Source: an uncultured Planctomycetia bacterium
GTDB lineage: Bacteria; Omnitrophota; Gorgyraeia; Duberdicusellales; 4484-171
Reading direction: 5' to 3'
Assembly (NCBI GenBank): GCA_964629655.1
Contig: CAZVQU010000001.1
Coordinates: 292,056-356,055 of the forward strand
DNA length: 64,000 nt
Each line of letters begins with the position of its first letter. The stretch's first letter is position 1. The position numbers and the translations under genes are program-made. Below are positions 25,079 through 64,000 of this stretch, in pieces. The notes below the pieces were generated by a model. The model was not told where the DNA came from, ran no database searches, and was given only the letters and a program-made list of their open reading frames with translations.

Positions 25079-25084
25079 TATATA

Positions 25085-46084: not shown

Positions 46085-46091
46085 GCCATAA

Positions 46092-47033: not shown

Positions 47034-47036
47034 TCT

Positions 47037-47819: not shown

Positions 47820-47877
47820 AATCTTACTCCCCCTACTTTTAAAGATTAAATAACTTTCATCAAAATTAAACAGGTAT

Positions 47878-48639: not shown

Positions 48640-48694
48640 TTAAAATGTCCTCTTCCCTTTATCTATCATTACCGTAAAGGATACATCCATACTA

Positions 48695-49579
48695 TTATAT
48701 AAATTTTCTTTTAAAATCTGCAAAGACTTCCCGATATAAAGTAGTATCTCTCTCCAAGATAACTCCCCAAAATCCCTCGAAATCTATCTCTCTCATAAAC
48801 ATTCTCAGAAATCCGCTTAGAAAAGGTATCCAGCGGGGATACTGATAATAAATTTGCTCATGGATAATCTTCCACCCTGTATAATTCATAAGCAGTTTCC
48901 AATCTTCCGGATTCAATTCAAAGATATGTTCATTCTCTACTACCTTATGACTCTTTTTCCTCTTACGCATAGAAGACAACCCAACACGGCTTTTTCGCAA
49001 ATAAGGCACTGTTACTGCTATTCTGTTACACTTTAGATTCTTGCCTAATCGCTTAAGAAAATCTATCGGGTTATGCAGATGCTCTATTATCTGAAAAAGA
49101 ATAACCAAATCAATCTTCCTATCCCCTAATGTAAAATCCTCCCCATTACACAAAACGGCCTTATGTCCCTGAGCTTTAATTTTTTCTACTGAAATTGAGT
49201 CGCAGTTAACGCTGATGGAATCAATATTGAATACGCCATCAGTAAGCCCTTCGAGATACCGCAGGTGCGTACGCGCTGAATCTCCAATATCCACAATGGT
49301 CAACTCACCGGCAGGAAATCCTTTCAGCGCCTTAAGCATTAAAGAACATTGAAAGGCGTGCTGGATGCGTAGTTTAGTCTCCCAGAAGCTGTTGAAATCC
49401 AGAGGACAAGAGTATTGGTTGGAGATATCCGGCTTTATCCTCTGCAGTTTTCTTATGATTTCTCTATAGTTATTCTGAAACAAGGTCAATCGAAGAGAGA
49501 ATTTGGCTATCCCCTGAATAAAAGCTTTGATATCAACACCAATTGTTCTTAGAATTTTTTTGACGATTAATTTAAGCAT
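48695..49579 (-). CDS. Class I SAM-dependent methyltransferase (probable)
   Basis: LTIVDIGDSARTHL (motif I-like), DLVILFQIIEHLHNP (typical post-motif II/III EH block). Confidence 0.5.
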   Translation of the reverse strand: MLKLIVKKILRTIGVDIKAFIQGIAKFSLRLTLFQNNYREIIRKLQRIKPDISNQYSCPLDFNSFWETKLRIQHAFQCSLMLKALKGFPAGELTIVDIGDSARTHLRYLEGLTDGVFNIDSISVNCDSISVEKIKAQGHKAVLCNGEDFTLGDRKIDLVILFQIIEHLHNPIDFLKRLGKNLKCNRIAVTVPYLRKSRVGLSSMRKRKKSHKVVENEHIFELNPEDWKLLMNYTGWKIIHEQIYYQYPRWIPFLSGFLRMFMREIDFEGFWGVILERDTTLYREVFADFKRKFI

Positions 49580-49616
49580 AATTTGTTAATCCAAACTAAT
49601 AAAACACAAACGCGGC

Positions 49617-50696
49617 TTATTTGCATTGGGCCTTCTTATGAATTGATTTAAAAGCCGAAATAAAATCTCGCATTTGTTCTGCCGGTCCAGCTGTAATTCT
49701 TATGAGGCCTTTTATAGGCGCTGTGGAAAAAGGCCCGCTAATATAAAATTTTTTCTCTTTTAGCAATTTCACCATTTGTTCTCTATCAACTTCTACGGGC
49801 AACTTTGCAAACAAAAAGTTAGTACAAGTTTGGAAAGTTATAACTCCTAACTCCTCTAACTCTTTCGATAAATACTTTATGCCTTCCTTAACGCCCTGGA
49901 CATAATTATTCATAATTTCTAAATGCTCCAAAAGATACTTACCAAATTTTGCTGAAATACCGGTAATTTCATGAGTAAGCTTGGCTTTATACAATTGGCT
50001 AATCTTATCTTTATTACTTATCAAGTACCCTATCCTTAAAGCTGCGACTCCGAACGCTTTGGAAAAAGTTCGCACAATAATCAAGTTGTCAAATTCATTA
50101 ATATACGGCAACATCGTTTCTTCATGAAAATGGTAATAAGCCTCATCAATAATAACTAAAGCCTGATTATCTTTTGCAACTTTAAGTATCTGAAGGAGTT
50201 CTGACTCAGGTAAAGCAGTACCCGTATGATTAGGATTTGCGATAACCACTAATTTTGTCTTATGACCAATAGCATTAAGCACGCTCTCTAAAGGTAACGA
50301 AAAATCTTCGCCGTAAAATACTTCTTTGATTACCCCTCCAAACATAGCGCAATATACTGAATACATCGCGTATGTTGGGGGAAAAACCAACACTTCGTCT
50401 CCCTGCTCCAGATAAACTTCATATATAGCCCTTATGCCTGTATCTGAACCGCTGGTTAAGAGTACTTGATTTCTATCTACATTCATCCATCCGGAAAGCT
50501 TTTCGTAAAACGGCTCCAACTCCGGATAAGCAACAACCTCTTCGGGACTTATACTTTGCCATATTTTTTTCAAATGTTCCTCGGGAAAAGAAACAGTCCG
50601 CTCATTCCTATCTAGCCTAACTACTCTTCCGATTCTATTCACAGAAACAGGCGCTGTCCTAAATAAACGTTTCATATTTTCTTTTGGCTCAATCAT
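49617..50696 (-). CDS. Class II (HisC/CobD-like) PLP-dependent aminotransferase or decarboxylase
   Basis: RLDRNERTVSFPE..., TFSKAFGVAALRIGYLISN matches the HisC-type TxSKxFxLAGxRxGY lysine block. Confidence 0.6.
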   Translation of the reverse strand: MIEPKENMKRLFRTAPVSVNRIGRVVRLDRNERTVSFPEEHLKKIWQSISPEEVVAYPELEPFYEKLSGWMNVDRNQVLLTSGSDTGIRAIYEVYLEQGDEVLVFPPTYAMYSVYCAMFGGVIKEVFYGEDFSLPLESVLNAIGHKTKLVVIANPNHTGTALPESELLQILKVAKDNQALVIIDEAYYHFHEETMLPYINEFDNLIIVRTFSKAFGVAALRIGYLISNKDKISQLYKAKLTHEITGISAKFGKYLLEHLEIMNNYVQGVKEGIKYLSKELEELGVITFQTCTNFLFAKLPVEVDREQMVKLLKEKKFYISGPFSTAPIKGLIRITAGPAEQMRDFISAFKSIHKKAQCK

Positions 50697-50709
50697 AGTT
50701 TAAACCTTC

Positions 50710-51408
50710 TTATTGGCCTCTCATAAAAATCTCTGCCAACTTAAAGTCACCCTCGCTATCAATATCAACCGAACGCCCCTCAGGCATAATATAGGCAAAA
50801 GTTCCCTGTCCGTGGAAGCTTTTTCTTTCTAATATGTAATTGCAAAAAGCCACATATATCGCGCCGTTTAACGCGTAAAAATCAGGAACTTGCTGCCTGT
50901 TATTATTAACCGCCTCCTTCCGTATAAAATCTCTCATGCATCCATCATCCGGCAAAGTATTTACCCAATAGGGATGGTGAGTTACCTTAGATACAGAAAT
51001 AACTGCACGAGCATTTTTTAAAAATAGCAGCTTTATTGCCTTATCAATATCTTCCGGCGCCCTCAATGGAGAAGTAGGCTGAAGTAGGATTAATAAATCG
51101 TAAAGCTCACCGATATTTCTAAACCAGTTAATCGCGTGCAGCACCACATCTATCCCTTGAACCTCATCAGTAGCTAATTCCTTTGGTCTTAAAAAAGGGG
51201 TTTCCGCGCCATATTTTGCTGAAATTTCTGTAATTTCCTCACTATCGGTAGAAACAATAACTCTATCCAGATATTTACTTTTTTTCGCTTCTTCTATGGT
51301 CCATGCAATTAACGGCTTCCCCAATAACGGCCTTACATTCTTATAAGGCAACCTCTTACTTCCGCCGCGTGCGGGAATCAAAGCTAAAATTTTTTTATTT
51401 TTATACAT
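50710..51408 (-). CDS. CMP-nonulosonic acid synthetase (N-acylneuraminate cytidylyltransferase family; NeuA/LegF/PseF-like)
   Basis: ILALIPARGGSKRLPYKNVRPLLGKPLIAWTIE is the hallmark CTP_transf_3 NeuA motif; 232 aa. Confidence 0.8.
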   Translation of the reverse strand: MYKNKKILALIPARGGSKRLPYKNVRPLLGKPLIAWTIEEAKKSKYLDRVIVSTDSEEITEISAKYGAETPFLRPKELATDEVQGIDVVLHAINWFRNIGELYDLLILLQPTSPLRAPEDIDKAIKLLFLKNARAVISVSKVTHHPYWVNTLPDDGCMRDFIRKEAVNNNRQQVPDFYALNGAIYVAFCNYILERKSFHGQGTFAYIMPEGRSVDIDSEGDFKLAEIFMRGQ

Positions 51409-51420
51409 ACATAGTAAGTT

Positions 51421-52494
51421 TTATAATGACCGAAATTTATCCATTGCTTCCTTGTATTCCTCCCACTGTCCAACATCTATATAAGATTTTTCTGACACAG
51501 GGTACGTTCCAACGCTTTCTCCCCTATCCAAGAGTAGTTGGATTAAATCAGTCATGTCAAAACATCCTTTATCGGGAATAAAATCAAGACATTTTTTAGA
51601 CAATATATATACCCCCGTATTTATGGTGAAATCAAATTCCGGCTTTTCCTGAATTTCTTTCATTCTCCCCTGTTTTTCAAAATGGATAATGCCATAAGGG
51701 ACTCTATAGTGCTGGATAGAGCCAATAATGGTCAGAATATTATTATTTTTACTATGAAAATTCAGCAAATCTCTATAATCTGCATCTACAATAATGTCGC
51801 TGTTAGAAACTATAAAAGTTTCCTTCATGCAAGATGGTAATAATTTTAGACTGCCTGCTGTCCCTAAAAATTCTTTTTCCTGAATATACTCTACCTTATA
51901 ATCCTTCTCTATACCTTCTAAGTAAATCTTGATCATCTCACCCTTGTAATTTAAAGTAATATAAAATGAGTCAACACCATACTGTCTAAATTTATCTATT
52001 ATCATTTTGATAATCGGCTTATCACCCAATGGAATAAGAGATTTGGGAAATATTTTTGTGAAAGGTCCTAACCGCTCGCCCTTGCCGCCAGCCATTATAA
52101 CGACAGGGGTATCAATCTTTTTGTGAAAAAATGTATCCTTTCCAAATATATCTTTCCAAAACAAAACGTCTACGATTCTTCTTCTTTCGTCTAATACGGG
52201 AATAACCTCAATAGTCTTATCCAACATTAATCTTCTCGCATCATCGTTCACATAATCACCCTCTACAACAAAAACTGGATTTTTGTTAAAGCATTTGGCG
52301 ATACTTTCTTTTAAGTCACCGGTTTGTAAAATCCTTCGTCTTATGTCACCGTCAGTAAGTGAACCGGTCAAAAAGTTATCCTCGTCGCAAACAAACAGCG
52401 TTGCCATTCCAGCCTTATCAATTCTCTTTAGAGCTTCTTTTATCGAAGCTTGCGGACTAATTTTTATTTTTGTAATTACATCTTCCATGTTCAC
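51421..52494 (-). CDS. CBS-pair + sugar-phosphate nucleotidyltransferase (PtmE-like NTP:hexosamine-1-phosphate nucleotidyltransferase)
   Basis: N-terminal tandem CBS domains (VCDEDNFLTGSLTDGDIRRRIL ... IPVLDERRRIVDVL), then VVIMAGGKGERLGPFTKIFPKSLIPLG (the GxGxRL NTP-transferase motif). Confidence 0.7.
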   Translation of the reverse strand: MNMEDVITKIKISPQASIKEALKRIDKAGMATLFVCDEDNFLTGSLTDGDIRRRILQTGDLKESIAKCFNKNPVFVVEGDYVNDDARRLMLDKTIEVIPVLDERRRIVDVLFWKDIFGKDTFFHKKIDTPVVIMAGGKGERLGPFTKIFPKSLIPLGDKPIIKMIIDKFRQYGVDSFYITLNYKGEMIKIYLEGIEKDYKVEYIQEKEFLGTAGSLKLLPSCMKETFIVSNSDIIVDADYRDLLNFHSKNNNILTIIGSIQHYRVPYGIIHFEKQGRMKEIQEKPEFDFTINTGVYILSKKCLDFIPDKGCFDMTDLIQLLLDRGESVGTYPVSEKSYIDVGQWEEYKEAMDKFRSL

Positions 52495-52495
52495 A

Positions 52496-53617
52496 TTAAT
52501 CCTCTAAGCTTTTATAAATAGGATCTTTTAGCCTCCACTCACCATTAGCATCCTTTTTGAATAAATCACGGTTGTAATGCTTATCGACGATTGCCCAGAA
52601 TTCTTTAGCCGAGTAGCCCAAAAAATTTATAAAATCGTTCACCACTTTTGGGTCAAGATCATGGTCATGTTTTTTCACTAACCGGATACCTTTTTCTCTT
52701 GTAATTAATCCATATCTAATGAATTTAGCTGCATAATCTGTCGCAGTTGCGTGGCCAAACTTTGGGTATTTCAACCATGGATGAACCAAGTAGGCTCGAC
52801 TGTCTACTTGATCAAAATCCTCAATATGATGTGTTCTTCTCCACTCATGGGTTAAACTCTTAAATCCTCTGCTTTTTGCAAAACCATAATTTCCATAGCT
52901 ATTCCATTGCACAAAATAGCTTAAGTATATCGGTTCAATCTTATTAATATCTTGGCTTGAAACATATTTACAGAGTTCCAAGTTATTAATAATGATGTTG
53001 TCATCTATGAGTTCTTCCCAGGGTATATCAGAAGCTACACCGTTAGATATCTGTTCTTTTGCAGAAAAGGTTTCCTCCTGCTGTTCTCCTCCATATTCAT
53101 AGGTAACATTCTCTCCATACACCAGTAAAGGTATAGAAAACTTTACCGCCATATGTATAGGAAAGGTGTAAATTAATCTGTCTATATACCAAGTGGGTTG
53201 CCCATATCTCTCAAACGTTTTTCTCATTATATGTTTTTGGGCTTTTATATTGGGTTTAAGACTTATGATTTCACAATCAAACTCTTCAGAAATATTTCTT
53301 ATATTATGCAGGCCGGCTTTGGTCATAGGAAAATTATCTTCCACAGTAACCAGCAAAGGATTCATACCCATAAGCTCTTTCATCACATGGACTTGAAAAT
53401 GGCTATCTTTCCCCCCACTTACTGCTATTAAACAATCGTGTTTGCCTGAATCTTTTCTTCTATACTTATCACAAATCTTCTCCAGCTCTTTTCGTCTCTT
53501 GCCCCAATCGATATCCTTTCTTCTTCCATATGAACGACAGGGTTGACAAACTCCTTCCTCATCAAAAGTAATCCCCGGTCTTGTATCGGGCATTACGCAT
53601 TTCTTGCAATATTTCAC
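52496..53617 (-). CDS. N-acetyl-sugar amidotransferase (PP-loop ATPase; WbuX/PseA/LegA-like)
   Basis: N-terminal Cys-x2-Cys ... Cys-x2-Cys zinc ribbon (CKKCVMPDT...CQPCRSY), then LIAVSGGKDSHF (SGGxDS PP-loop). Confidence 0.7.
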   Translation of the reverse strand: MKYCKKCVMPDTRPGITFDEEGVCQPCRSYGRRKDIDWGKRRKELEKICDKYRRKDSGKHDCLIAVSGGKDSHFQVHVMKELMGMNPLLVTVEDNFPMTKAGLHNIRNISEEFDCEIISLKPNIKAQKHIMRKTFERYGQPTWYIDRLIYTFPIHMAVKFSIPLLVYGENVTYEYGGEQQEETFSAKEQISNGVASDIPWEELIDDNIIINNLELCKYVSSQDINKIEPIYLSYFVQWNSYGNYGFAKSRGFKSLTHEWRRTHHIEDFDQVDSRAYLVHPWLKYPKFGHATATDYAAKFIRYGLITREKGIRLVKKHDHDLDPKVVNDFINFLGYSAKEFWAIVDKHYNRDLFKKDANGEWRLKDPIYKSLED

Positions 53618-53671
53618 AATACTACCTCCTACAGCTTTAGATCCAAGAATCTACACCTAGCATTAGCTAAA

Positions 53672-54829
53672 TTATATATCATAAAATTTTTTCCGTATAA
53701 TATTAGTTATATTGTAGCGTTTAAGAATATTTTTAATTCTGACGGCGGCATTTCCATCACCGTATAGGTTCTTAATGTTTTTAAGCCTTCTCTGAAAATA
53801 TTTAGAGTATATTTTTTTGAAAGCATCGGTAAGTGCGTCTTTCGTAGGCGCACAATCAATTACGCTTTTTGCTTTAATTCTTCCTTTTTGTCTGTCTCCG
53901 ATATTTACTGTGGCAATTTTAAAACTTGGAGCCTCACCAATACCACTTGATGAGTTACCTACAACCGCATCAACAAATTGCATGGTGGACAGATAATTAA
54001 GCTGCCCCATAGAAGTAAAAGCAGTCGCTTTTTGAGGGTTTTTCTTTACATATTCATCGATCAATTGATTAATTTTCCTGCCTCCTGAATCAGCATTTGC
54101 TTTTGTAAAAACTATATTGGTATTTTTTAATCCATTCAGTACATTCAATATTTTCTTAAATTGGGTACCCGATGTATTGTTTTCCAAAGTAACAGGATGA
54201 AAAGTAACCAAAATATTAAATCTATTAAATTTTAAATTCAACCTTTTTTCTAGCTCTTTTTTCGACAAAAAATCCTGATTTTTTATATTATCTAAACTTA
54301 ACGAACCTACACGAAAAACTCGACTGGGATCCTCACCTAGCTGGATAACTCTCCTCCTATACTTCTCTGTAGAAGTAAAATGTAACTGGCTCATTTTAGT
54401 TATGGAGTGGCGAAAGGCATCGTCAATAGCACCTTCAGTCAACTCACCTCCGCAAATATGAGCAATAGGAATTCTTTGTATGTGAGCCGCTACGGCTGCA
54501 CTAAAAATTTCAAATCTATCGCCTAAAATAACCACCATATCCGGCTTTAGTTTTAAGTAGGCTTTAGAGATTCTAACTAGAGCATGAGCCATGGATTTAG
54601 TAATACCTATATTGCTATCTGAACTTAAAACTATACTTACTTTTTTATCGATTTTAAAACCGTCCTGGATAATTTCTTGATATGTTAAGCCAAATTCACT
54701 AGATAAGTGAGTTCCAGTTACAACTAACTGTAATTTTAAACCGCGATCTTCCTTAATCTCTTTAATCAATGGCCGCAAAATCCCATATTCAGCCCGAGAA
54801 CCTGTGACTACACAAATCTTCCTACTCAT
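53672..54829 (-). CDS. neuC: UDP-N-acetylglucosamine 2-epimerase, hydrolysing (NeuC/LegG-like)
   Basis: ICVVTGSRAEYGILRPL..., ILGDRFEIFSAAVAAHIQRIPIAHICGGELTEG (the GDRxE ... HIxGGE NeuC pattern); 4-nt overlap with the neuB-like gene. Confidence 0.8.
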   Translation of the reverse strand: MSRKICVVTGSRAEYGILRPLIKEIKEDRGLKLQLVVTGTHLSSEFGLTYQEIIQDGFKIDKKVSIVLSSDSNIGITKSMAHALVRISKAYLKLKPDMVVILGDRFEIFSAAVAAHIQRIPIAHICGGELTEGAIDDAFRHSITKMSQLHFTSTEKYRRRVIQLGEDPSRVFRVGSLSLDNIKNQDFLSKKELEKRLNLKFNRFNILVTFHPVTLENNTSGTQFKKILNVLNGLKNTNIVFTKANADSGGRKINQLIDEYVKKNPQKATAFTSMGQLNYLSTMQFVDAVVGNSSSGIGEAPSFKIATVNIGDRQKGRIKAKSVIDCAPTKDALTDAFKKIYSKYFQRRLKNIKNLYGDGNAAVRIKNILKRYNITNIIRKKFYDI

Positions 54830-55830
54830 AGTTCTATTGGTTGATCCACCAAGAAATCTTTCTTGGCAGTTTTTCCTATTACCTTATCCCACTCCATGGG
54901 ATTTATACCTTTTCCCGGCCTTTTTGTAATAATGTTTTCTTCGGTGAAAATATCTCCTTCTTTTATATTTTTTGCTGCTATTATACTTTTTCTGACTATA
55001 GGCCTATTTTTAAGCTCTGAGGGCGAAGTTTCTTTTACCCCATCACCTAGCGCCATTTCAACGTTTCGTATACCCACTATCATAGTCTTCAATTCATCGG
55101 GTTCTAATGATATTTTATGGTCGGGTCCTTCCATGTTTCTATCCAGTGTAAAATGTTTTTCTATAACTCTTGCACCTAAAGCCACGGCAGCAATAGGCAT
55201 TTCTATACCAAGAGTATGGTCAGAATACCCCACAGCCACTTTAAAGGTTTCTCCTATTGTAACCATTGCTCTTAAATTTACATCTTTACAGGGAGTTGGA
55301 TATTCTGTGTTGCACTGTAAAATAGTTATTTTTGCCTTTTCAGTTCCTGCTTTTATTAAAATATCTAATGCATTCTCTATCTCTTTCAAATCTGCCATGC
55401 CCGTCGACATTATGATTTCTTTCCCCAAACTTCCGACCTTTCTTAAAAGGGGAAGATTGGTTATTTCTCCTGATGGAACTTTAAAAATCTTAAGCCCGAG
55501 TCCGTTAAGCATGTCTACACTTTCCAGATCAAATGGGGAAGACAAAAATATAATACCTTTTTTCTCACAGTAGTTGAAAAGTTCTTCGTGAACTTGAGCA
55601 GTTAATTCCAACTTTTTTACCATCTCTAGCTGGGACTCCTCCCTATTGGTCGTCATTTGCTGATACTCAGCTTTTGGCGCGTATCTACTTATAGCCTTTC
55701 CGCTTTTAAACGACTGAAACTTTATAGCATCTGCCTTGGCTTCCAAGGCAACATCAACCATTTTTTTCGCTATTTCGGCATTGCCATTATGACTGATGCC
55801 TGCCTCCGCTATAATAAAAACTTTTTTCAT
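54826..55830 (-). CDS. neuB: Nonulosonic acid synthase (N-acetylneuraminate synthase family; NeuB/LegI/PseI-like)
   Basis: KVFIIAEAGISHNGNAEIAKKMVDVALEAKADAIKFQSF (the IIAEAG.NHNG NeuB signature); C-terminal SAF/antifreeze-like domain. Confidence 0.85.
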   Translation of the reverse strand: MKKVFIIAEAGISHNGNAEIAKKMVDVALEAKADAIKFQSFKSGKAISRYAPKAEYQQMTTNREESQLEMVKKLELTAQVHEELFNYCEKKGIIFLSSPFDLESVDMLNGLGLKIFKVPSGEITNLPLLRKVGSLGKEIIMSTGMADLKEIENALDILIKAGTEKAKITILQCNTEYPTPCKDVNLRAMVTIGETFKVAVGYSDHTLGIEMPIAAVALGARVIEKHFTLDRNMEGPDHKISLEPDELKTMIVGIRNVEMALGDGVKETSPSELKNRPIVRKSIIAAKNIKEGDIFTEENIITKRPGKGINPMEWDKVIGKTAKKDFLVDQPIEL

Positions 55831-55930
55831 TTTGAGTTACCTATAAAGTGCGTTAAACGTACAAGTTTAGCCCTTTCATTCTATAACTATGCAGGATTGA
55901 GCCGAACTGTAGGGACTTGGAATCGGGCAA

Positions 55931-55949
55931 TTTTCAAACAGTTTGAAAA
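55931..55949. promoter_or_regulatory. Perfect 19-bp palindrome in the 255-bp neuB-upstream intergenic gap; candidate operator or regulator binding site
   Basis: ttttcaaac a gtttgaaaa: 9-bp perfect inverted arms around a single central base. It lies about 100-120 bp upstream of the neuB-like start at 55830, in the only intergenic gap over 130 bp in the window. Confidence 0.3.
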
Positions 55950-56085
55950 ATTTTTCCTAAGATCTACCTCCTTTCCTGAAGCGTAAGATTTAGTCTGGAT
56001 ATTTTGCCCCCTCATATTCCATTCTCCTTTTCTGCATACTAAATTACCTTATACTTACCCATTGAAAAAGCTCCAACATTTATTC

Positions 56086-56736
56086 CTAAAATATTGTCAT
56101 AGACTTGTTCTTAATGTCGGGGAAAAAGAAAGAACGATTAGCTATATTTTGATCAACAGTACCCCCTGCTTTTATCTTGTTTTCAGAACCAATGCTCATA
56201 TTAGGCAAAATATTGCTTGAGGTTCCAAAAAAGTTATTATTATCTATTCTCGCATGGCCGGCAACTCGCACATTGGGAGAAAAAACGTTATTACTGCCAA
56301 TACTGCAACCATGAGCTACGGTAGTGTGGTAGTTTAATATATTGAAATCGCCTATGCTTACATTAGGTCCCACTATACAGTAAGGAGCTATTATATTCCC
56401 CAACCCAATATTTGTATTTGCACCTACTAAGACAGTATGATGTATAAGGTTAATGAACTCTGCGTTTTTTTTATTTAAAATATCTATAACCTTATTTCTT
56501 ATTTCTTGAATTCCGATAGCTATTATTACGTAGTCGTTCGGACCCAGTGTATATGTCCTTTCATCTCCAAGCAAAGGTTTCTCGAACTTATATTTTTTAA
56601 AATCCTTACTGCTGATGCTTAAATATCCTTTAATTTGATACTGATACAAGCTAAGATTATGCTGTCGATTATTATTTATATATTCTGTTACTTCAGCAGC
56701 TAATCCCCCAGTTCCAACGATAATAATATCTTTCAA
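56086..56736 (-). CDS. PglD/NeuD/LegH-family hexapeptide-repeat sugar N-acyltransferase
   Basis: N-terminal Rossmann-like MKDIIIVGTGGLAAEVTEYI, then left-handed beta-helix hexapeptide repeats (IGLGNIIAPYCIVGPNVSIGDFNILNYHTTV...). Confidence 0.7.
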   Translation of the reverse strand: MKDIIIVGTGGLAAEVTEYINNNRQHNLSLYQYQIKGYLSISSKDFKKYKFEKPLLGDERTYTLGPNDYVIIAIGIQEIRNKVIDILNKKNAEFINLIHHTVLVGANTNIGLGNIIAPYCIVGPNVSIGDFNILNYHTTVAHGCSIGSNNVFSPNVRVAGHARIDNNNFFGTSSNILPNMSIGSENKIKAGGTVDQNIANRSFFFPDIKNKSMTIF

Positions 56737-56840
56737 CCTCTTCCTCCTTAATATTTAATCGTATAGTAAAAGCCTGACCCCAAACACTAACTTAGCTATT
56801 ATCAATCCTCAAATATTTCCTTTAATTCAATAGAAAATAA

Positions 56841-57548
56841 TTATAACATAACTCCGCCAAGATATACCGTCTGACCGGTAATAAAGCTACTTTCGTCCTT
56901 AATAAAAAAATCGATAACGTTTGCAATGTCTATATACTTTCCTGTCCTCTTTATTGCTTGAAGGTTAATAACTTTCTCGATCGCCTCCTTTGGGAATATT
57001 TGCAACATATCCGTACCAATTACGGCTGGACCGATAGCATTGCAGGTAATATCAAAAGGAGCAAATTCTTTAGCAAAAATCTGGGTTAACTTATCAATAG
57101 CGGCTTTCGAAGCAGCGTATGCAGATTCTCCTTCAAGTTTTAACGGCACCGCCCCCGAAGTAAAATTAACTATCCGTCCATATTTTCGCTTAGACATAAT
57201 TTTTGCAGCCTCTCTGCAAAAAAGGAATGTTCCAAAAGTATTGGTCTTGAAAACTTCCTCAATTGTGGAATAAGGAGTCAGTATGCTATGATTAAAAGAA
57301 GCTGTACCCGCGTTATTGATTAAGATGTCAAGCCTACGATATTTCCGCCTAATATCGTTGAACATCGTCACTACCTCTTTCTCATTCTTGATGTCTAAGC
57401 AAAAATGTCTATAGCAGTCGGATTCTATATTGCTCTCATGCCTGCTGCAACCTATTATCATATATCCACGTTCAAGATAGTGTTCCACAAGGTATCTTCC
57501 AATCCCTCTGCTGGTACCAGTAACAAGCATTATCTTTTTTTCTTTCAT
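56841..57548 (-). CDS. Short-chain dehydrogenase/reductase, FabG-like 3-oxoacyl-ACP reductase
   Basis: IMLVTGTSRGIGRYL (TGxxxGIG), NNAG, YAASKAA (YxxxK). Confidence 0.8.
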   Translation of the reverse strand: MKEKKIMLVTGTSRGIGRYLVEHYLERGYMIIGCSRHESNIESDCYRHFCLDIKNEKEVVTMFNDIRRKYRRLDILINNAGTASFNHSILTPYSTIEEVFKTNTFGTFLFCREAAKIMSKRKYGRIVNFTSGAVPLKLEGESAYAASKAAIDKLTQIFAKEFAPFDITCNAIGPAVIGTDMLQIFPKEAIEKVINLQAIKRTGKYIDIANVIDFFIKDESSFITGQTVYLGGVML

Positions 57549-57841
57549 TTTTTTGCCTTTTCTAATAGGACCATAATATAATCTACGAACGAACCAACGC
57601 TTCTAAAAGGGCTATCCTTATATGAAAAAACTTTTTCATCGGCAATAGCAGTGTTTACCAAAAATTCATCTGCAATCTTCTGCTCTACGTCAGTAATAAA
57701 TGTGACAAAGGCCATTGAATCAAAAATTCCTTGGCTACCAAACAATTCCATCTTTTCTGAAATGTCTTCATTTTGATTACTCTGCAATGCAGACACCTCT
57801 CTAATGCTTTCAAAAATTATCTCCTTTATTTTTTTACGCAT
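57545..57841 (-). CDS. Acyl carrier protein
   Basis: 98 aa, acidic. GIFDSMAFVTF carries the phosphopantetheine-attachment Ser in a D-S-(L/M) context. It overlaps the FabG-like gene by 4 nt and is flanked by the FabH-like gene. Confidence 0.6.
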   Translation of the reverse strand: MRKKIKEIIFESIREVSALQSNQNEDISEKMELFGSQGIFDSMAFVTFITDVEQKIADEFLVNTAIADEKVFSYKDSPFRSVGSFVDYIMVLLEKAKK

Positions 57842-57872
57842 ATTTTACTCTCTTGCTCAAACGTCTCTTCTT

Positions 57873-58856
57873 TTATAATCGAATTAACGTCGTCCCCCAT
57901 GATAATCCACCACCAAAAACAACTAACATAATTAAATCATTACTCGCTGCTTTTTTACTCTTAATTAGCTCGTCTAGCCCTATTAATGTTGATGCCGCTG
58001 CAGTATTTCCATACTTGTCAACGTTTACAACAAACTTATCATAATCAAAGTCTAACCGTGCAGACAACTCTTTAATGATGTTTATATTTGCCTGATGGGG
58101 AATTATAAATTTAATTTGTTCTTTTCTGATTCCCGTTACCGTTAAAATTTCGTTGACAACCTCTACCCCTTTATTAATAGCAAATTCATACACCTGTTTC
58201 CCATACATCCTAAAATAAAAATCATTATGATTCTTGATCCGATAACCGGGCAACATCGTTCCTCCACCCGGAACCTGTATTGTATCAGCGCCCGAACCAT
58301 CGCTATGTAATATAGAATGAATTATTCCGGAATCCATACCACTTGCGGCTGATAAAAGAACTGCACCTGCACCATCGCCAAAGTAAGGATAGGTAGAAAA
58401 ATCTTTTGGGTTTAAATAGCGGGAATATATTTCTGCTCCTACTACTAATACATTTTTGCAAAAGCCTGCCCTAATCATTGAGTCAGCGCCATATAATGCA
58501 AAAATTCCGCCACTACATACGGAGTTAATGTCAAAAGCAAAAGCATTAATTGCCCCTATTAAATGCTGGACTCGAGTTGCAGTTGCAGGCTGTATTCTAT
58601 CTGGAGAGGAAGTTGCAAGAATAATTGCCTCAATTTCACAAGGTTTGATAGGAGCCTTCTCGAGACAGCTTTTTGCTGCCAGAAACGCCAAATCGGATGT
58701 AGATTGATTTTCTTCTGCAAACCTACGAACTTTCACCCCTGTTTTTTGTTCAATTAAAGGAATGCTTATTTTAGGAAAGTTAGTGAGTTCATCGTTTGCA
58801 ACGACATTTTCTGGGACATAACTTCCAGTTGATACAATCTTTGATCTAATTGACAT
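57873..58856 (-). CDS. 3-oxoacyl-ACP synthase III (FabH/KAS III-like)
   Basis: IVSTGSYVPENVV..., active-site Cys in AFDINSVCSGGIFAL, C-terminal H/N region (IPHQANINII...); 327 aa. Confidence 0.8.
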   Translation of the reverse strand: MSIRSKIVSTGSYVPENVVANDELTNFPKISIPLIEQKTGVKVRRFAEENQSTSDLAFLAAKSCLEKAPIKPCEIEAIILATSSPDRIQPATATRVQHLIGAINAFAFDINSVCSGGIFALYGADSMIRAGFCKNVLVVGAEIYSRYLNPKDFSTYPYFGDGAGAVLLSAASGMDSGIIHSILHSDGSGADTIQVPGGGTMLPGYRIKNHNDFYFRMYGKQVYEFAINKGVEVVNEILTVTGIRKEQIKFIIPHQANINIIKELSARLDFDYDKFVVNVDKYGNTAAASTLIGLDELIKSKKAASNDLIMLVVFGGGLSWGTTLIRL

Positions 58857-59997
58857 ATCTAAAATCCTTGCTTGCTTTTGTTGCCACCTCTTCTATTGTC
58901 TTGCAGACACAATATATATCATCTTTGGTGTTACGTGTAGAACTTGGTAAGCATAAACCTCCGGCATAAATAGAGTAAGCATTTTTGTACTCGTCCTTTT
59001 TATATATCTTATAAGGTATAAATTCTACTACCGGCATAAAAATTCTTCGTGTGGGAACACCTTTTCTTTTTAGTGCGATTTGCAAGTTTCCTATCTCTAT
59101 TCCTCTATCAAAAGCAATGCATGTAAACCAATAACTACTCTCTGCATCCTGGAATTCTTCTTGAAAATGAATGTTATCTATATTCCCAAGTTCACTCCGG
59201 TATATATGATTGAACACCCTCTTTTTATTTAGAAACTTGTCGATTTTTTCCATCTGAGCGAGGCCTAAAGCAGCTTCAATATTCGTCATCCTATAATTAA
59301 AACCTACTTCGGAATAATAATATCTATTTGATTTACTTCGCGCCTGATTTGCTAAAAACTTTATGTGCTCTAAGCCTCTGGCATCCTCGCCTACTACCAT
59401 TCCGCCACCGCCAGTTGTGACTATCTTATTGCCGTTAAAGCTAAAACATCCGTAATCCCCAAAAGTCCCCATATTCTTTCTTCTATACTTAGCGCCCAAA
59501 CTTTCTGCGGCGTCTTCTATTACATAAAGATTATGGCGCTTAGCAATATCCATTATTATATCCATCTGGCAAGGATTGCCGTAAAGATGGACCGGTATTA
59601 TTGCTTTTGTCTTTTTGGTTATTGCTTTCTCCATCTTCTCCGGGTCAATATTCCAAGTAGCACTATCAACATCTACAAAAACTGGTTTCGCACCAACATG
59701 CACAACAGCATTAGCAGTTGCAACAAATGTTAAAACAGGAACAATTACCTCATCCTGAGAACCTATCCCGAGTTCGTATAAAGCCATAAGAAGAGCTGCT
59801 GTTCCGCTTTGGGTAGAAACAGCTTTTTTTGCCCCTAAATAGCTCCTGACCTTTTCCTCAAACTCCGAAACATATGGTCCTGCCGTAGAAACATATCCGT
59901 CATCAATGGCTCTATTCAAATACTCTTTCTCCAAACCATCAACATTTGGTGCATCCAAATGTATTTCTCTCTGCTTTGTGTCCAACTTTTTTAACAT
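58846..59997 (-). CDS. DegT/DnrJ/EryC1-family PLP-dependent sugar aminotransferase (LegC/PseC-like)
   Basis: STQSGTAALLMAL..., DAAESLGAKY, CFSFNGNKIVTTGGGG (Schiff-base Lys). Confidence 0.8.
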   Translation of the reverse strand: MLKKLDTKQREIHLDAPNVDGLEKEYLNRAIDDGYVSTAGPYVSEFEEKVRSYLGAKKAVSTQSGTAALLMALYELGIGSQDEVIVPVLTFVATANAVVHVGAKPVFVDVDSATWNIDPEKMEKAITKKTKAIIPVHLYGNPCQMDIIMDIAKRHNLYVIEDAAESLGAKYRRKNMGTFGDYGCFSFNGNKIVTTGGGGMVVGEDARGLEHIKFLANQARSKSNRYYYSEVGFNYRMTNIEAALGLAQMEKIDKFLNKKRVFNHIYRSELGNIDNIHFQEEFQDAESSYWFTCIAFDRGIEIGNLQIALKRKGVPTRRIFMPVVEFIPYKIYKKDEYKNAYSIYAGGLCLPSSTRNTKDDIYCVCKTIEEVATKASKDFRYVN

Positions 59998-60025
59998 ATC
60001 ATTTTACGTTTAATATTTTTTAAAA

Positions 60026-61465
60026 TTACTTCCCCTTAATTAAGATCTTTAATAGTATCAAGGCAGTCCGCATTTTCCTCCTAAATGACCTGCAATACTT
60101 GATATCCTGTCTTACGACAGGGAATACATAAATTAATCTAAAAATTCTATTAGGAGGTAATTTAATCAGCTTCTTAATTAAAGGCTCTAACCACTTATGC
60201 TTCACTAATAGATAAAAGAAATAATGTATGTTTATCAGTTCTGCTGCCTGCTTCAATTTTAGAGGCATTAAGACTCTGTCGCCAACGTAATAGATTTGAA
60301 ATCCAGTATCGGACTCAGAAAAATCATAATCTGGCAACAAAAAACCGGCATCCTTGGCATACTCATTGATTTCGGTTCTTGGATATGGTTGTAGAATAGT
60401 GACTCTGGCCATCTCAGGCTTAAACAACCTATTTAGTTCTACTGTTTTCATAGCAGTAGAAACGGTTTCATGAGGAACGCCGATAATATTAGCTATCTGA
60501 ACTCGTATCTTATATTTATTAAATAATCGCCCCCCCCCTACAATCTGCTTATCTGTCATATCTCTCTTCAAAATATTCTTCCTGATCCATTCATCTCCAT
60601 GCTCAATTGCAAAATCAATTCTATCGCACTTAGCTTCCTTCATTTTTTTAACCATCTCTTCATCAACTAAATCAATGCGTACGTTACACAGAAAAGGAAT
60701 ATCTATTTCCTGTTTATACCGATCTAAAAAAGTCATAAACCATTCCCTGTTGACATTAAGAGTGTCGGTAATAATCTGAAGCCATTTCATTCCATACTTA
60801 TCCCGAACATACTTAATCTCCGCAATTGCTTTGTCTACATCTAGGCAACGGATGTATTGACCTTTACCGGCATACATTTTCTTTAAGGCATTATTAAAAC
60901 AATAGGTACAACTAAAAGGGCAGCCTCTTACAAGGAATATGCTTTTAGTTGGTTCATCTCGTAATTCGAGATATTTGTCATAGTATAACTCTCTATCATA
61001 TATAGGTAACTCATTTATATCAACCAAATCACATAAATCGTTTTTATATATATTTCCATTCCTCTTTACCCACAAATTCTTAATATTAGTAAAATCGTGC
61101 CCCCTGTCAATACGGTTAGCCAACTCCAAAAAAGCATATTCTCCTTCACCGATGCATATTGCATCTAAGCACCTTTGCTTAATGACTTCCGGAAAAAAAG
61201 TAGGATGTGGACCGCCCATTATAATAAAAGCATCTGAAAATTTTCTTAATTCAACAGCCCAATTCAAAGCAAGTTTATTGTTAGCAGTCATTGTCGAAAA
61301 AGCAATAATATTAGGCTTGTAATCCAACACATCTTGGACAATATTTTTGCTTTTTGACTGGATAAACATTTCACATTGATGGCCTCCCTTTTTTAATACC
61401 GCTGAGAGAGCCATCGCTCCAAACCTAGTCCTTATTTCTCGTTGCACAAATGCGATCCTCGCCAT
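60026..61465 (-). CDS. Cobalamin-binding (class B) radical SAM enzyme
   Basis: N-terminal B12-binding-like region (MARIAFVQREIRTRFGAMALSAVLKKGGHQ), LVRGCPFSCTYC radical SAM motif; 479 aa. Confidence 0.7.
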   Translation of the reverse strand: MARIAFVQREIRTRFGAMALSAVLKKGGHQCEMFIQSKSKNIVQDVLDYKPNIIAFSTMTANNKLALNWAVELRKFSDAFIIMGGPHPTFFPEVIKQRCLDAICIGEGEYAFLELANRIDRGHDFTNIKNLWVKRNGNIYKNDLCDLVDINELPIYDRELYYDKYLELRDEPTKSIFLVRGCPFSCTYCFNNALKKMYAGKGQYIRCLDVDKAIAEIKYVRDKYGMKWLQIITDTLNVNREWFMTFLDRYKQEIDIPFLCNVRIDLVDEEMVKKMKEAKCDRIDFAIEHGDEWIRKNILKRDMTDKQIVGGGRLFNKYKIRVQIANIIGVPHETVSTAMKTVELNRLFKPEMARVTILQPYPRTEINEYAKDAGFLLPDYDFSESDTGFQIYYVGDRVLMPLKLKQAAELINIHYFFYLLVKHKWLEPLIKKLIKLPPNRIFRLIYVFPVVRQDIKYCRSFRRKMRTALILLKILIKGK

Positions 61466-61532
61466 CTATATATTCCCCTTATTTAGTTATTTTTCTTACT
61501 ATCTAGTACTAAAGATACTCAACAATGCCCCT

Positions 61533-62531
61533 CTATATATTATAAATATCCGACTTATAGAGATTCATGCTTCCTTTGCCCTTAAACCATTCTATTGTTT
61601 CTTTCAACCCTTGATCCAAAGTGTAAACTGGCTTCCACCTTGTTAGTTCTTTTATTTTCTTATTACTTCCCAGCAGCCTTTCCACTTCACTGTTCTTCGG
61701 CCTAATCCTTGCATCATCCGTAATAATTTTGGTATTACAATTCATATTCTTAATAATTGTTTTGGCAAGGTCTCCTATGGATATTTCAGTCTGGGTCGCA
61801 ATGTTTACCTCTTCGCCAATTGTCTTATCTGACTTTGCGATATCTATGAAACCATCTACAACATCTTTGACAAACACCAAATCTCGTGTGGGTGTAAGTG
61901 AGCCGAGTTGAATCTCCTTTTTTCCAGATAACACCTGGGTTATAATCGTAGGAATTATTGCTCTTGCAGACTGACGAGGCCCGTAAGTATTAAATGGTCT
62001 AGCGATCACTATGGGCAGATTAAAGCTCCTGTAAAATGACTCTGCAACATAATCAGCTCCGATCTTTGTTGCCGAATAGGGTGATTGAGCCTGCTTAGGA
62101 TGTTTTTCATCAATGGGAACATACTGTGCTGTCCCATACACCTCAGATGTTGAAGTAACTAATACCTTCTTTACTCCATAGTCTCTAGCTGCGTGTAAAA
62201 CATTAAGTGTTCCTTTTATATTCGTATCAACATAGCTATCAGAAGAAACGTAACTAAAAGGGATTCCTATTAAAGCCGCCAAATGAAATATAATATCTAT
62301 GCCTTCTATCGCTTTTTTAACTCTATTGAAATCTCTTATATCGCCTGTGAAAACTTCTATCTTATTCAAACTTTCCTTAGGCAAACTTTCAAGCCAACCC
62401 CAGGAATTGAATGAATTGTAATAAGCAAAAGCTCTTATCTCGCACTCTTCCAGCAATAATCTTTCAACGAGATGGCTTCCAATAAATCCATCCGCGCCTG
62501 TTATTAGTATTTTCTTTTTTCTAATATCCAT
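61533..62531 (-). CDS. NAD-dependent sugar-nucleotide 4,6-dehydratase (extended SDR; LegB/RmlB-like)
   Basis: KKILITGADGFIGSHLVERLL (GxxGxxG), YSATKIGADY (YxxxK), 332 aa. Confidence 0.65.
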   Translation of the reverse strand: MDIRKKKILITGADGFIGSHLVERLLLEECEIRAFAYYNSFNSWGWLESLPKESLNKIEVFTGDIRDFNRVKKAIEGIDIIFHLAALIGIPFSYVSSDSYVDTNIKGTLNVLHAARDYGVKKVLVTSTSEVYGTAQYVPIDEKHPKQAQSPYSATKIGADYVAESFYRSFNLPIVIARPFNTYGPRQSARAIIPTIITQVLSGKKEIQLGSLTPTRDLVFVKDVVDGFIDIAKSDKTIGEEVNIATQTEISIGDLAKTIIKNMNCNTKIITDDARIRPKNSEVERLLGSNKKIKELTRWKPVYTLDQGLKETIEWFKGKGSMNLYKSDIYNI

Positions 62532-62544
62532 TGCATAACTTTTC

Positions 62545-63978
62545 TTAATGGACAGATAATGTCAACTCATACAAATTGCTACGTAACCTTTCCAAAGCCT
62601 TATCATCATCAAAAGTATCATATTCCCGAATCTCTTGTTCGCTGATTACATCCCTGCATTTAAATTTTCCGTTTAGAATATTATCTATCTGTTTAAAAAG
62701 AAGACTTTTATCCTTCAATACTATTACATCTTTATACTTTTTGGCAAAAGGGTGGCAGTTATTATTATTAAGATCAAAATATAGAGCATCTTTACCGCAA
62801 ATCAAAGCTATCGTAGAGGGACTATTTAAACCCATATTTATACAAACATCGGATACGGCAATAATTTCTTCAATGCCCCATTCTAAAGGGCTAAGATAAT
62901 TAAAATTATCAAAACTGGTGAGTTGATCCCAAATTTTTTTAAATTGGCCGTAATAGCTGTCGGTTATCCTTTCGGCGTAGGTCATTTCTTTTTTTGCCTT
63001 CAATAATACATTGATTTCTTTATTCTTTTTACAAAATTCACTTATCAACATCAAATATTCAAGAATGGAAGATTGCGTAAAAAGAGAGTAATCAGCAAAA
63101 GATGTATCAAAAAACGTTACTATTTTTTTGCCCCTTTTAAAATTAGCTATTCTGGCAATGGTACTTTCCTTATTTTTTACTGCTTTACTATACTCGTTCT
63201 TAAAAATACATCCTATGCTAATTTTTTTATCAACAAAATAATTTTCTGAATGATAGTCGTAATGGATATCACCCCATATAAAATAAATATTATGAGCGAT
63301 AAAAGCGTAATCCGTTGTTTTATAAACAGTCAGATCGCTCCAGTGAAAAATTACATTTTGCGTACCATACTTATTTAAAATAATTGTTTCGGCAATATCA
63401 TCATAATCAATGAAGGAAATATTACATCCGATTCTGTATCTGTTTAGAAAAACTTCCAGGGAAAAAGTCCGTTTAAAAAAATAGAGAAATTTATAGAATA
63501 GGTAACTTTGTTTCGTGAAAAGAAGCTTTGAATATAAAAATAAAGGAGTAAGAAAATACAAACCTAAAACTTTTAAAAAGTTGCTCCTAATATTAAAAGG
63601 GATATTGCACGCAGATACAGTATGAAACCCTCTTTCCTTGGCAGCATTAAATACTCTATTCCTTATGGTGTTCTTATTGTAGAATTGGTAAAGCAAAATA
63701 TCGTCGTTCGTAAAATATTTACCATCGATGAGAATATCGTCTCGGTCGACTTTGCGATGGAATCCGGCACAGGACTCTGTTGATAATTTAAAATATGGCC
63801 GCGCTTTTCCAACAACGACTCCTCTTCTTACAAGCTCTTTTATTAACCATGCCCAATAATAAAGAAAGAAAAAGATATTTGTAAAATTGTTGAAAAAGAT
63901 AACCTTGACGTGCCCTGTAAATTGATGCTTAAATTTATCAACAACATATCGATTAATCCTATCGTCCTTTAGTATCAA
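62545..63978 (-). CDS. Hypothetical soluble protein, possible GT-B-like transferase. The start is uncertain: the track start is a TTG and the frame stays open to the window edge at 64000.
   Basis: 477 aa with no TM. C-terminal ...GLNSPSTIALICGKDALYF weakly resembles the C-terminal motif of 36756..38717. There is no in-frame stop between 63978 and 64000 on the minus strand. Confidence 0.3.
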   Translation of the reverse strand: MILKDDRINRYVVDKFKHQFTGHVKVIFFNNFTNIFFFLYYWAWLIKELVRRGVVVGKARPYFKLSTESCAGFHRKVDRDDILIDGKYFTNDDILLYQFYNKNTIRNRVFNAAKERGFHTVSACNIPFNIRSNFLKVLGLYFLTPLFLYSKLLFTKQSYLFYKFLYFFKRTFSLEVFLNRYRIGCNISFIDYDDIAETIILNKYGTQNVIFHWSDLTVYKTTDYAFIAHNIYFIWGDIHYDYHSENYFVDKKISIGCIFKNEYSKAVKNKESTIARIANFKRGKKIVTFFDTSFADYSLFTQSSILEYLMLISEFCKKNKEINVLLKAKKEMTYAERITDSYYGQFKKIWDQLTSFDNFNYLSPLEWGIEEIIAVSDVCINMGLNSPSTIALICGKDALYFDLNNNNCHPFAKKYKDVIVLKDKSLLFKQIDNILNGKFKCRDVISEQEIREYDTFDDDKALERLRSNLYELTLSVH

Positions 63979-64000
63979 TGTACTTTCTTTACCAAGATTT

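Follow-up and report, generated by a model that had tools for sequence, protein, structure and literature searches.

Positions 50710-62531 of the 64-kb window (the whole stretch of DNA analyzed here, 64,000 nucleotides from an uncultured bacterium) are proposed to form one CMP-legionaminic acid operon in which a dedicated acyl carrier protein (ACP), private to the locus, stands in for acetyl-CoA as the donor at what is usually an N-acetylation step. The predicted product is CMP-Leg5Am7(3-hydroxybutanoyl), where Leg denotes legionaminic acid, and we place the probability of this reading at about 0.6. In the direction of transcription, from 62531 to 50710, the genes encode a LegB dehydratase, a B12-radical S-adenosylmethionine (SAM) protein, a LegC aminotransferase, a KAS III (β-ketoacyl-ACP synthase III), the ACP, a short-chain dehydrogenase/reductase (SDR), a PglD-like acyltransferase, NeuB, NeuC, WbuX, a CBS-domain nucleotidyltransferase (CBS-NTP-transferase), and a cytidylyltransferase. 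The open reading frames (ORFs) named in a first-pass annotation of this DNA are all present at the coordinates it gave, on the minus strand, to which every position below refers. Its interpretation is supported apart from its count of DegT aminotransferases and the role that it gave to the radical SAM protein, and its suggested acyl product, 3-hydroxybutanoyl, is the one that we infer here.

The spacing of the genes in 50710-62531 is operon-like. LegC and KAS III overlap by 11 nucleotides (nt), ACP and SDR by 4 nt, and NeuC and NeuB by 4 nt, and most of the other intergenic gaps measure 1-67 nt. The exceptional gaps flank the PglD-like gene, with 104 nt on the SDR side and 255 nt on the neuB side. 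The latter (55831-56085) is the largest in the module, and its sole content is a 42-residue ORF (56015-55887) that is also called on Logan contigs. Rfam returned no match anywhere in the window, and promoter and terminator scans of 49500-64000 gave signals no better than chance.

LegB (61533-62531), an NAD-dependent nucleotide-GlcNAc 4,6-dehydratase for the first step of the route, scores 500.8 bits against TIGR04180 (cut-off 475). The LegC-family DegT aminotransferase (58846-59997), which is predicted to make the 4-amino-4,6-dideoxy-GlcNAc nucleotide sugar, scores 416.7 bits against TIGR04181, its best family by a wide margin (267.9 bits for the PseC model) and only 3 bits under the cut-off of 420. 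A NeuB-type nonulosonate synthase equivalent to LegI (54826-55830; TIGR03569, 497.5 bits versus a cut-off of 399.65) and a NeuC-type hydrolyzing 2-epimerase equivalent to LegG (53672-54829; TIGR03568, 490.2 versus 235.9) are followed by a WbuX/PseA-type N-acetyl sugar amidotransferase (52496-53617; TIGR03573, 368.6 versus 203.2) with the PP-loop SGGKDS at residue 67. The CBS-NTP-transferase (51421-52494) is PtmE-like, joining a CBS region (PF00571, residues 5-56) to a sugar-1-phosphate nucleotidyltransferase (PF00483, residues 132-354), and has homologs in three related nonulosonate loci (L088, L097, and L102). The last gene (50710-51408) encodes a predicted CMP-nonulosonate synthetase of the LegF/NeuA/PseF family (CTP_transf_3, PF02348, 88.8 bits). 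It scores 167.9 bits against the only specific model, TIGR03584 for PseF, which is under the cut-off of 205.7; its identity to the L088 and L102 cytidylyltransferases is 45-46%.

Because LegB, NeuC, NeuB, and WbuX exceed curated cut-offs, and because a CBS-NTP-transferase and a CTP_transf_3 protein are present, the Campylobacter-type legionaminic acid route put forward in the first-pass annotation is supported. That the intermediates are GDP-linked rather than UDP-linked, and that the stereochemistry is D-glycero-D-galacto, is suggested by two features, the match of LegB to its model and the PtmE-like CBS-nucleotidyltransferase. The claim of two DegT aminotransferases has to be corrected, as LegC is the only one in this range. 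The next aminotransferase lies just outside it, at 49617-50696, and is a HisC-like class I/II enzyme; another DegT protein is encoded 20 kb away, at 30666-31799.

Inserted between LegC and the PglD-like gene is the KAS III/ACP/SDR trio. The first-pass annotation had staked its idea of a dedicated acyl supply on a modifiable serine in the ACP, an intact Cys-His-Asn triad in the KAS III, and relatives that are specific to such loci rather than housekeeping, and all three expectations are borne out. The KAS III (57873-58856) is a FabH-type enzyme of a subfamily found in glycan and polyhydroxyalkanoate (PHA) loci. It scores above the cut-offs of NF006829 (330 bits versus 249) and TIGR00747 (302 versus 292.1), and it aligns end-to-end with true FabH enzymes in the PDB at 1e-65 to 6e-62. 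A decarboxylating condensing enzyme requires a Cys-His-Asn triad; Cys114, His254, and Asn284 are invariant in 35 subfamily members and align to those of solved FabH. The subfamily also has an insertion of ~14 residues, a gap in the aligned best PDB FabH, 2ebd, within which G198, G199, and P203 are invariant.

Relatives of this KAS III were sampled as 80 genome loci, from which the small ORFs directly downstream were collected. They are 43-68% identical to the window enzyme and occur in accessory loci that carry a small ACP of their own: a small ORF with the Asp-Ser motif lies directly downstream in 65 of the 70 loci with enough flanking sequence. Neighbors identified in these loci include glycosyltransferases, deacetylases, aminotransferases, N-acyltransferases, and PhaC-like synthases. 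In the closest of them (L004, L005/L074, L006, and L007), KAS III and ACP, in some cases with an SDR, are followed by a weak GNAT-like protein, and a polysaccharide deacetylase is also present in L004 and L005/L074. Lacrimispora genomes have the order KAS III-ACP-GNAT, and L086 has KAS III-ACP-WbmS-like deacetylase-hexapeptide transferase adjoining a dehydratase and a DegT protein. Because KAS III-ACP relatives recur in such varied accessory loci, the pair is best read as a portable supplier of a short hydroxyacyl thioester, and the gene contexts support a trio that is private to its locus rather than a housekeeping set.

A large share of these relatives bears on the length of the acyl chain. 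A PhaC-like synthase, often with an SDR in addition, comes next after the KAS III-ACP pair in 28 of 61 loci, most of them from Syntrophales, Desulfobacterales, and Chromatiaceae. The monomer of canonical PhaC is 3-hydroxybutyryl, and the link between KAS III and PhaC thus fits a C4 3-hydroxybutyryl unit. The PhaC-type loci come from Syntrophales, Desulfobacterales, and Thiocapsa/Chromatiaceae metagenome-assembled genomes (MAGs), with a KAS III that is 48-55% identical to that of the window and a PhaC-like protein scoring 160-173 bits against PF07167; examples are L011:9992-13903, L039:9974-12990, and L066:10001-13754, with 25 further genome loci. Their gene order suggests an ACP-fed supply of hydroxyacyl groups to a PHA-synthase-like enzyme, and our literature search found no paper on natural KAS III-ACP-PhaC operons.

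The protein encoded between KAS III and the SDR (57545-57841) has 98 residues and is accepted here as a divergent carrier protein with a predicted phosphopantetheine site at Ser42, a match made at the profile level only. The assignment is made because profiles built from the small ORFs downstream of KAS III relatives match ACPs. When 30 of these ORFs were aligned with the window protein, Asp41-Ser42 was the only invariant pair. The family profile matches ACPs in the PDB at 4e-10, with the Asp-Ser pair falling on the Asp-Ser-Leu motif that carries phosphopantetheine, and 21 of the 30 members match PF00550 individually. A profile of the ~100-residue subgroup to which the window protein belongs matches 2lki, an ACP-like NMR structure, at 8e-4 and 2l4b at 8e-3, and hhalign relates this subgroup to the PF00550-positive group with 91% probability (E 1e-6); the corresponding comparison with Escherichia coli AcpP alone is not significant. 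A large protein search with the 98-residue sequence returned itself and one relative, 82% identical. In a low-confidence AlphaFold2 model made with no alignment, the protein has four helices, and Ser42 stands just before the second (residues 43-60).

The SDR (56841-57548) is FabG-like. FabG models match it best, all of them under cut-off (TIGR01830, 152.2 bits versus 297.75), and its top PDB matches are mostly FabG, at 1e-33 to 1e-29. It has the cofactor motif TGxxxGxG, in the form TGTSRGIG, together with the catalytic residues Ser131, Tyr144, and Lys148. Orthologs that are 50-54% identical follow KAS III-ACP in L004 and L005/L074, which lack nonulosonate genes, and follow a window-type ACP in L141.

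The acyl group would be transferred by the PglD/NeuD-like enzyme (56086-56736), a left-handed β-helix N-acyltransferase. While the NeuB, NeuC, and WbuX assignments stood up to profile searches, the NeuD model itself, TIGR03570, is matched at 134.1 bits, under its cut-off of 160.8. The N-terminal PglD_N domain is recognized (PF17836, 29.6 bits versus 23.4), as are hexapeptide repeats (PF00132), and the best PDB match is PglD (1.9e-17). His142 aligns with the histidine of the PglD "EHEC" motif, which we take to be the catalytic one. This protein is the only LegH-equivalent in the module, and the scanned window ORFs of at least 150 residues included no second transferase of the hexapeptide or LegH type.

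Relatives of the PglD-like enzyme, which are at most 48% identical to it, were collected from a metagenome collection with an alignment of the family; they were picked by sequence, with context ignored. Forty-eight loci could be evaluated, having a flank of 3.5 kb or more to one side. An ACP together with a KAS III or an AMP-ligase lies within 6 kb in 40 of the 48; a recognizable ACP is carried by 39 and an SDR by 40. The remaining eight have less than 2.4 kb of upstream flank, the side on which the cassette normally lies. The expectation that the NeuD-like enzyme would group with users of acyl-ACP is therefore upheld by gene neighborhood, in 40 of 48 relatives and in all that have enough flank. 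Because the loci of this clade carry an ACP and acyl-supply genes, the PglD-like enzyme probably uses acyl-ACP, and the neighborhoods argue strongly that the clade as a whole takes its acyl group from a carrier protein. A tblastn search of plasmids with the PglD-like protein gave only matches of at most 30% identity, outside the clade.

The clade is found with more than one kind of acyl-supply genes. Its closest members (42-47% identity) stand in nonulosonate loci with an ACP, an AMP-ligase, and an SDR, as in Pseudoalteromonas sp. A25 (L088), where the order is dehydratase-DegT-PglD-like-ACP-AMP-ligase-SDR, followed farther on by NeuB-cytidylyltransferase-CBS-NTP-transferase. In L102 the order is LegB-LegC-NeuC-NeuB-KAS III-ACP-SDR-PglD-like-PtmE-like-NeuA-like, with a KAS III only 27% identical to that of the window. 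A 32%-identical Butyricimonas homolog is arranged as PglD-like-ACP-KAS III-SDR-KAS III, and in a Weeksellaceae MAG the PglD-like gene is followed by a glyoxalase, a 526-residue protein with a weak NIF-domain match, and an ACP. The window appears to be a mosaic, its KAS III-ACP-SDR genes being nearest to those of deacetylase-type polysaccharide loci and its PglD-like gene nearest to those of ligase-type nonulosonate loci.

Two sets of these relatives merit separate mention. In the cultured Pseudoalteromonas sp. A25 (L088:10001-14492; AP021846.1), the PglD-like gene is grouped with genes for an 85-residue carrier protein (GLDSLG), an AMP-binding ligase, an SDR, a GNAT protein, and a PIG-L deacetylase; the sister arrangement recurs in L089-L094 and L097, and L088 offers a tractable system for ACP-dependent N-acylation. 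In two Bacteroidota loci (L171:6001-8852 and L170:6001-11965), more distant PglD-like homologs lie beside a Glyoxalase_4 protein, a ~526-residue protein that has a weak NIF/HAD-type match and is possibly FkbH-like, and a ~73-residue ORF, neighbors that would fit donors of the glyceroyl- or hydroxymalonyl-ACP type for sugar N-acylation.

The enzyme families and motifs of the module are those documented above. In the pathway that we infer, including its substrates, chain length, nucleotide (GDP or UDP), and order of late steps, the PtmE-like enzyme would supply the GDP-sugar, LegB would dehydrate it, and LegC would aminate C4. The 98-residue ACP would be phosphopantetheinylated at Ser42 and loaded with malonate by the housekeeping AcpS and FabD. 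The KAS III would then condense acetyl-CoA with malonyl-ACP to give acetoacetyl-ACP, and the SDR, acting as a 3-oxoacyl-ACP reductase, would reduce this to 3-hydroxybutanoyl-ACP. The chain is expected to grow no further, as the neighboring genes include none for a dehydratase, an enoyl reductase, or an elongating synthase. Judging from the gene neighborhoods of its clade, the PglD-like transferase would take this hydroxyacyl group off the ACP and attach it to the sugar at the 4-amine. NeuC would hydrolyze and 2-epimerize the acylated sugar, NeuB would condense it with phosphoenolpyruvate, and the cytidylyltransferase would activate the product, in which the former 4-amine becomes N7. WbuX would convert the 5-N-acetyl group to 5-N-acetimidoyl. 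The B12-radical SAM protein takes no step in this scheme.

Several observations weigh against the proposed pathway. The 98-residue protein by itself has no Pfam, NCBIfam, or PDB (phmmer) match, and its AlphaFold2 model has a low pLDDT of 63; the top Foldseek matches of the model are ACPs, but at an insignificant E of 0.9. Neither FabD nor a phosphopantetheinyl transferase is encoded in the 64-kb window. Because the SDR and the PglD-like enzyme score under equivalog cut-offs, their families do not define their substrates, and because the primer specificity of a KAS III cannot be read from its sequence, the acyl group may differ from C4. A radical SAM protein within the operon could alter the product. 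A private ACP is not required for a 7-N-3-hydroxybutanoyl Leg, since the Acinetobacter baumannii lga set lists no ACP gene, and the pathway is deduced here from the genes of an uncultured source. Finally, no HisH/HisF-type (WbuY/WbuZ) ammonia partner for WbuX was found among the scanned window ORFs of at least 150 residues. HisH/HisF-like partners adjoin WbuX in some O-antigen loci. To our knowledge, Campylobacter loci of the PseA/PtmG type are without such partners, and the partner is not universally required.

Delivery by the ACP could hold while the acyl group is something other than 3-hydroxybutanoyl, because the KAS III accepts another primer (propionyl, branched, or longer) or acts mainly as a loader, or because the radical SAM protein alters the chain or the sugar. 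We regard this as unlikely, though it is the likeliest of the alternatives. FabH enzymes of different species differ in the primer that they choose, and both the subfamily-specific insertion of the window KAS III, absent from 2ebd, and the class B radical SAM gene inside the operon could be signs of an unusual product. In addition, Flavobacterium psychrophilum makes a C6 group, 3,5-dihydroxyhexanoyl, with a related cassette (PMC6519341). That cassette, however, has two synthases, whereas the window encodes one condensing enzyme and one reductase. The coupling of KAS III relatives to PhaC-like synthases also fits a C4 monomer, and the radical SAM gene is not conserved with either cassette.

An improbable alternative is that the PglD-like enzyme is an ordinary acetyl-CoA-dependent LegH, and that the trio acylates a different acceptor in the 64-kb locus, giving an O-acyl group, another acylated amino sugar, or a lipid anchor. 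There are many other sugar-modifying genes in the window, including at least one other DegT/amino-sugar set, and elsewhere the KAS III-ACP module pairs with unrelated acyltransferases (GNAT, AAC(3)-like, and PhaC-like); the 104-nt gap between the SDR and the PglD-like gene would also permit such a separation. Yet the trio is flanked tightly by LegC on one side and the PglD-like gene on the other, LegC running 11 nt into KAS III, and no other candidate acyltransferase adjoins it. In every well-flanked relative locus, nonulosonate loci included, members of the PglD-like clade adjoin an ACP-based supply, which favors the PglD-like enzyme as the recipient of the acyl group.

The SDR might instead be a keto-nonulosonate reductase that alters the stereochemistry of the sugar, for example by 8-epimerization. 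The A. baumannii enzyme ElaC, an SDR structurally near fatty-acid ketoacyl reductases, acts on CMP-8-keto-Leg (PMC13656337), and the window SDR falls under the FabG equivalog cut-off. This role is very improbable and was rejected on gene context: the SDR gene overlaps that of the ACP, its orthologs follow KAS III-ACP in loci that have no nonulosonate genes and a window-type ACP in L141, and no ElaA or ElaB partner was identified beside it. The idea that the trio consists of the organism's housekeeping fab genes, in this locus by chance, was likewise rejected on gene context and has next to no likelihood even though the KAS III passes FabH cut-offs, as no fabD, fabF, fabZ, fabI, or acc gene lies near the trio and no other fab gene is found in the 64-kb window, the ACP is too divergent to match PF00550, and the closest KAS III relatives likewise occur in glycan or PhaC-type loci with a small ACP of their own.

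With acylation of the legionaminic acid precursor from the private ACP as the preferred reading, the role of the cobalamin-type (class B) radical SAM protein between LegB and LegC (60026-61465) must be considered separately. It matches PF02310, for an N-terminal B12-binding domain, at 55.5 bits and PF04055, for the radical SAM core, at 58.4 bits and has the CxxxCxxC motif as CPFSCTYC at residue 182, and all of its NCBIfam subfamily matches are far under cut-off. The best PDB matches, both of them weak resemblances, are AprD4 (2.9e-11) and CysS (4.9e-8). AprD4 is a sugar diol dehydratase and CysS is a C-methylase, and these matches do not decide between a methylase and a dehydratase; C-methylation or AprD4-like sugar chemistry is possible. 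The suggestion that this protein modifies the acyl group gains no comparative support, in that no ortholog was found in the ~170 loci searched, or next to any related cassette. Its closest relative is a paralog in the window itself (41376-42917; 33% identity).

A bolder proposal, which we consider rather unlikely, is that the radical SAM protein acts on the ACP-bound hydroxyacyl group or on the nucleotide sugar, through C-methylation or a deoxygenation like that of AprD4, to give an undescribed Leg derivative, and that the PglD-like clade consists of general acyl-ACP-dependent amino-sugar N-acyltransferases with interchangeable supply modules. If so, the derivative could be, for example, a branched or methylated 7-N-hydroxyacyl-5-N-acetimidoyl Leg, and the supply modules (KAS III/ketoreductase, AMP-ligase/ketoreductase, and possibly the FkbH-like type, with its weak NIF-domain match) would determine which non-acetyl N-acyl groups nonulosonic acids carry.

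The module stands in a window that is a single run of ~57 genes, all on the minus strand, with an even G+C content of ~36%. The assignable ORFs almost all concern glycan synthesis, encoding glycosyltransferases, a flippase, sulfotransferases, sugar-nucleotide enzymes, and many radical SAM proteins. Seven radical SAM genes occur in this one glycan locus (9061-10149, 14453-15409, 23444-26503, 40455-42917, and 60026-61465). Four of the seven have B12-binding domains, with two pairs of paralogs at 33-35% identity, which is unusual for a polysaccharide locus. Such an abundance is a hint that the host is anaerobic and that it C-methylates or deoxygenates its glycan extensively.

An ORF of 477 residues (62545-63978) lies 13 nt upstream of LegB and belongs to the same run of minus-strand genes. 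Searches of Pfam, NCBIfam, and the PDB gave no match for its product, which shows no marked hydrophobicity and could be a nonulosonate transferase or another novel enzyme. Directly downstream of the legionaminic acid module, 38750-50696 may hold a second module for an ulosonic acid or CMP-sugar. It includes an HpcH/HpaI aldolase (47037-47819), a KdsB-like cytidylyltransferase that scores above cut-off (45293-46084), and the class I/II aminotransferase at 49617-50696, together with three methyltransferases, a TagF-like transferase, a GFO/IDH/MocA oxidoreductase, a B12-radical SAM protein, a SPASM radical SAM protein, a D-2-hydroxyacid dehydrogenase, and an IMPase-like protein. At 20368-22401, two adjoining genes with sulfotransferase domains beside the flippase gene suggest a sulfated glycan. 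The genes at 1984-5943, encoding a Polysacc_synt_2 dehydratase (FnlA/CapE-like), an RmlD-like reductase, a UDP-GlcNAc 2-epimerase, and a further epimerase/dehydratase, form a set typical for the synthesis of a UDP-6-deoxy-L-HexNAc.

The antigenicity of nonulosonic acids at the surface of bacteria, and their interaction with the host, are set by the varied N-acyl groups that these sugars bear (acetyl, acetimidoyl, 3-hydroxybutanoyl, glyceroyl, and others), and the genes for the non-acetyl groups are mostly unassigned. The window and its relatives offer a concrete assignment, a distinct clade of PglD-like transferases that nearly always occurs with a private carrier protein and an enzyme that builds or loads the acyl group. 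In nonulosonate loci, a single transferase subclade is served by two supply modules, one for de novo condensation and one for ligase loading. The main value of the analysis lies in the connection that it draws, at the level of a clade, between transferases of the PglD-like type and carrier proteins private to their loci; the general picture is unchanged, since ACP-based acylation of sugars has already been predicted elsewhere. Our literature search turned up no account of a legionaminic acid locus that contains a KAS III/ACP/ketoreductase set. If the assignment is confirmed, N-acyl groups could be predicted from sequence in the typing of capsules, O-antigens, and flagellin glycans, and the enzymes could be used to make modified sialic-acid mimics.

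Comparison with known systems places the module between several of them. The legionaminic acid pathway of Campylobacter jejuni, as Schoenhofen et al. reportedly established in 2009, consists of LegB, LegC, LegH, LegG, LegI, and LegF, with PtmE and an amidotransferase of the PtmG/PseA type. The window presents enzymes of matching families in a matching logical order, namely a 4,6-dehydratase, a predicted 4-aminotransferase, a predicted left-handed β-helix N-acyltransferase, a hydrolyzing 2-epimerase, a synthase that condenses with phosphoenolpyruvate, and a predicted CMP-synthetase, along with a CBS-nucleotidyltransferase and a WbuX-type amidotransferase. It differs in that a PglD-like enzyme of the ACP-associated clade occupies the place of LegH, that a KAS III, an ACP, and a ketoreductase are inserted beside it, and that a B12-radical SAM gene stands between LegB and LegC. 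A functional parallel is found in lipid A synthesis, where LpxA and LpxD are acyl-ACP-dependent left-handed β-helix acyltransferases, with a nucleotide sugar as acceptor and ACP as donor of a 3-hydroxyacyl group. The hexapeptide-repeat fold is shared, and there are weak matches in the hexapeptide region; only that region matches, however. The N-terminal domain of the window enzyme is that of PglD, and its conserved His142 aligns to PglD.

The ligase-type loci (L088, L089-L094, and L097) resemble the window in their PglD-like enzyme (42-47% identity), NeuB, cytidylyltransferase, CBS-NTP-transferase, and small carrier protein with a (D/S)S-L motif. There, an adenylate-forming ligase would load the acyl group in place of a condensing enzyme that builds it, and the 4,6-dehydratases of L088 and L089 are of the Polysacc_synt_2 type. 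Fatty-acid-type genes have also been noted in flagellin glycosylation islands of enterobacteria. The predicted product itself has two counterparts. Pse5Am7Gra of Tannerella forsythia is likewise a 5-N-acetimidoyl, 7-N-hydroxyacyl nonulosonate, but it has pseudaminic stereochemistry, a glyceroyl group, and no gene assignment, and the authors call the genetic basis of its substitutions a "major challenge" (PMC5378307). The A. baumannii capsule locus lgaABCHIFG makes Leg5Ac7R, in which R is acetyl or 3-hydroxybutanoyl, the latter being the 7-N group predicted for the window. In that organism, acylation is set by the exchange of lgaH/I for lgaD/E, and no ACP, KAS III, or ketoreductase is listed (PMC6586298).

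The closest precedent for the acyl supply is the wfpC-wfpG cassette of the F. psychrophilum O-polysaccharide, which encodes two ketoacyl-ACP synthases, an ACP, a ketoreductase, and a PglD homolog, and which is predicted, not shown, to N-acylate the 4-amine of a 2-acetamido-4-amino-2,4,6-trideoxyhexose nucleotide sugar (PMC6519341). By gene content, the window shares with it a locus-encoded ACP, KAS, and ketoreductase beside a PglD homolog, and also the type of 4-amino intermediate, since the dehydratase and aminotransferase genes that would provide the 4-amino sugar adjoin the cassette. The outcome would be different in the two systems. In F. psychrophilum, the sugar remains a hexose (Qui2NAc4NR) and two synthases are used for the C6 3,5-dihydroxyhexanoyl group (PMC6519341), whereas the window has a single synthase, and its acylated sugar is predicted to go on to a nonulosonic acid.

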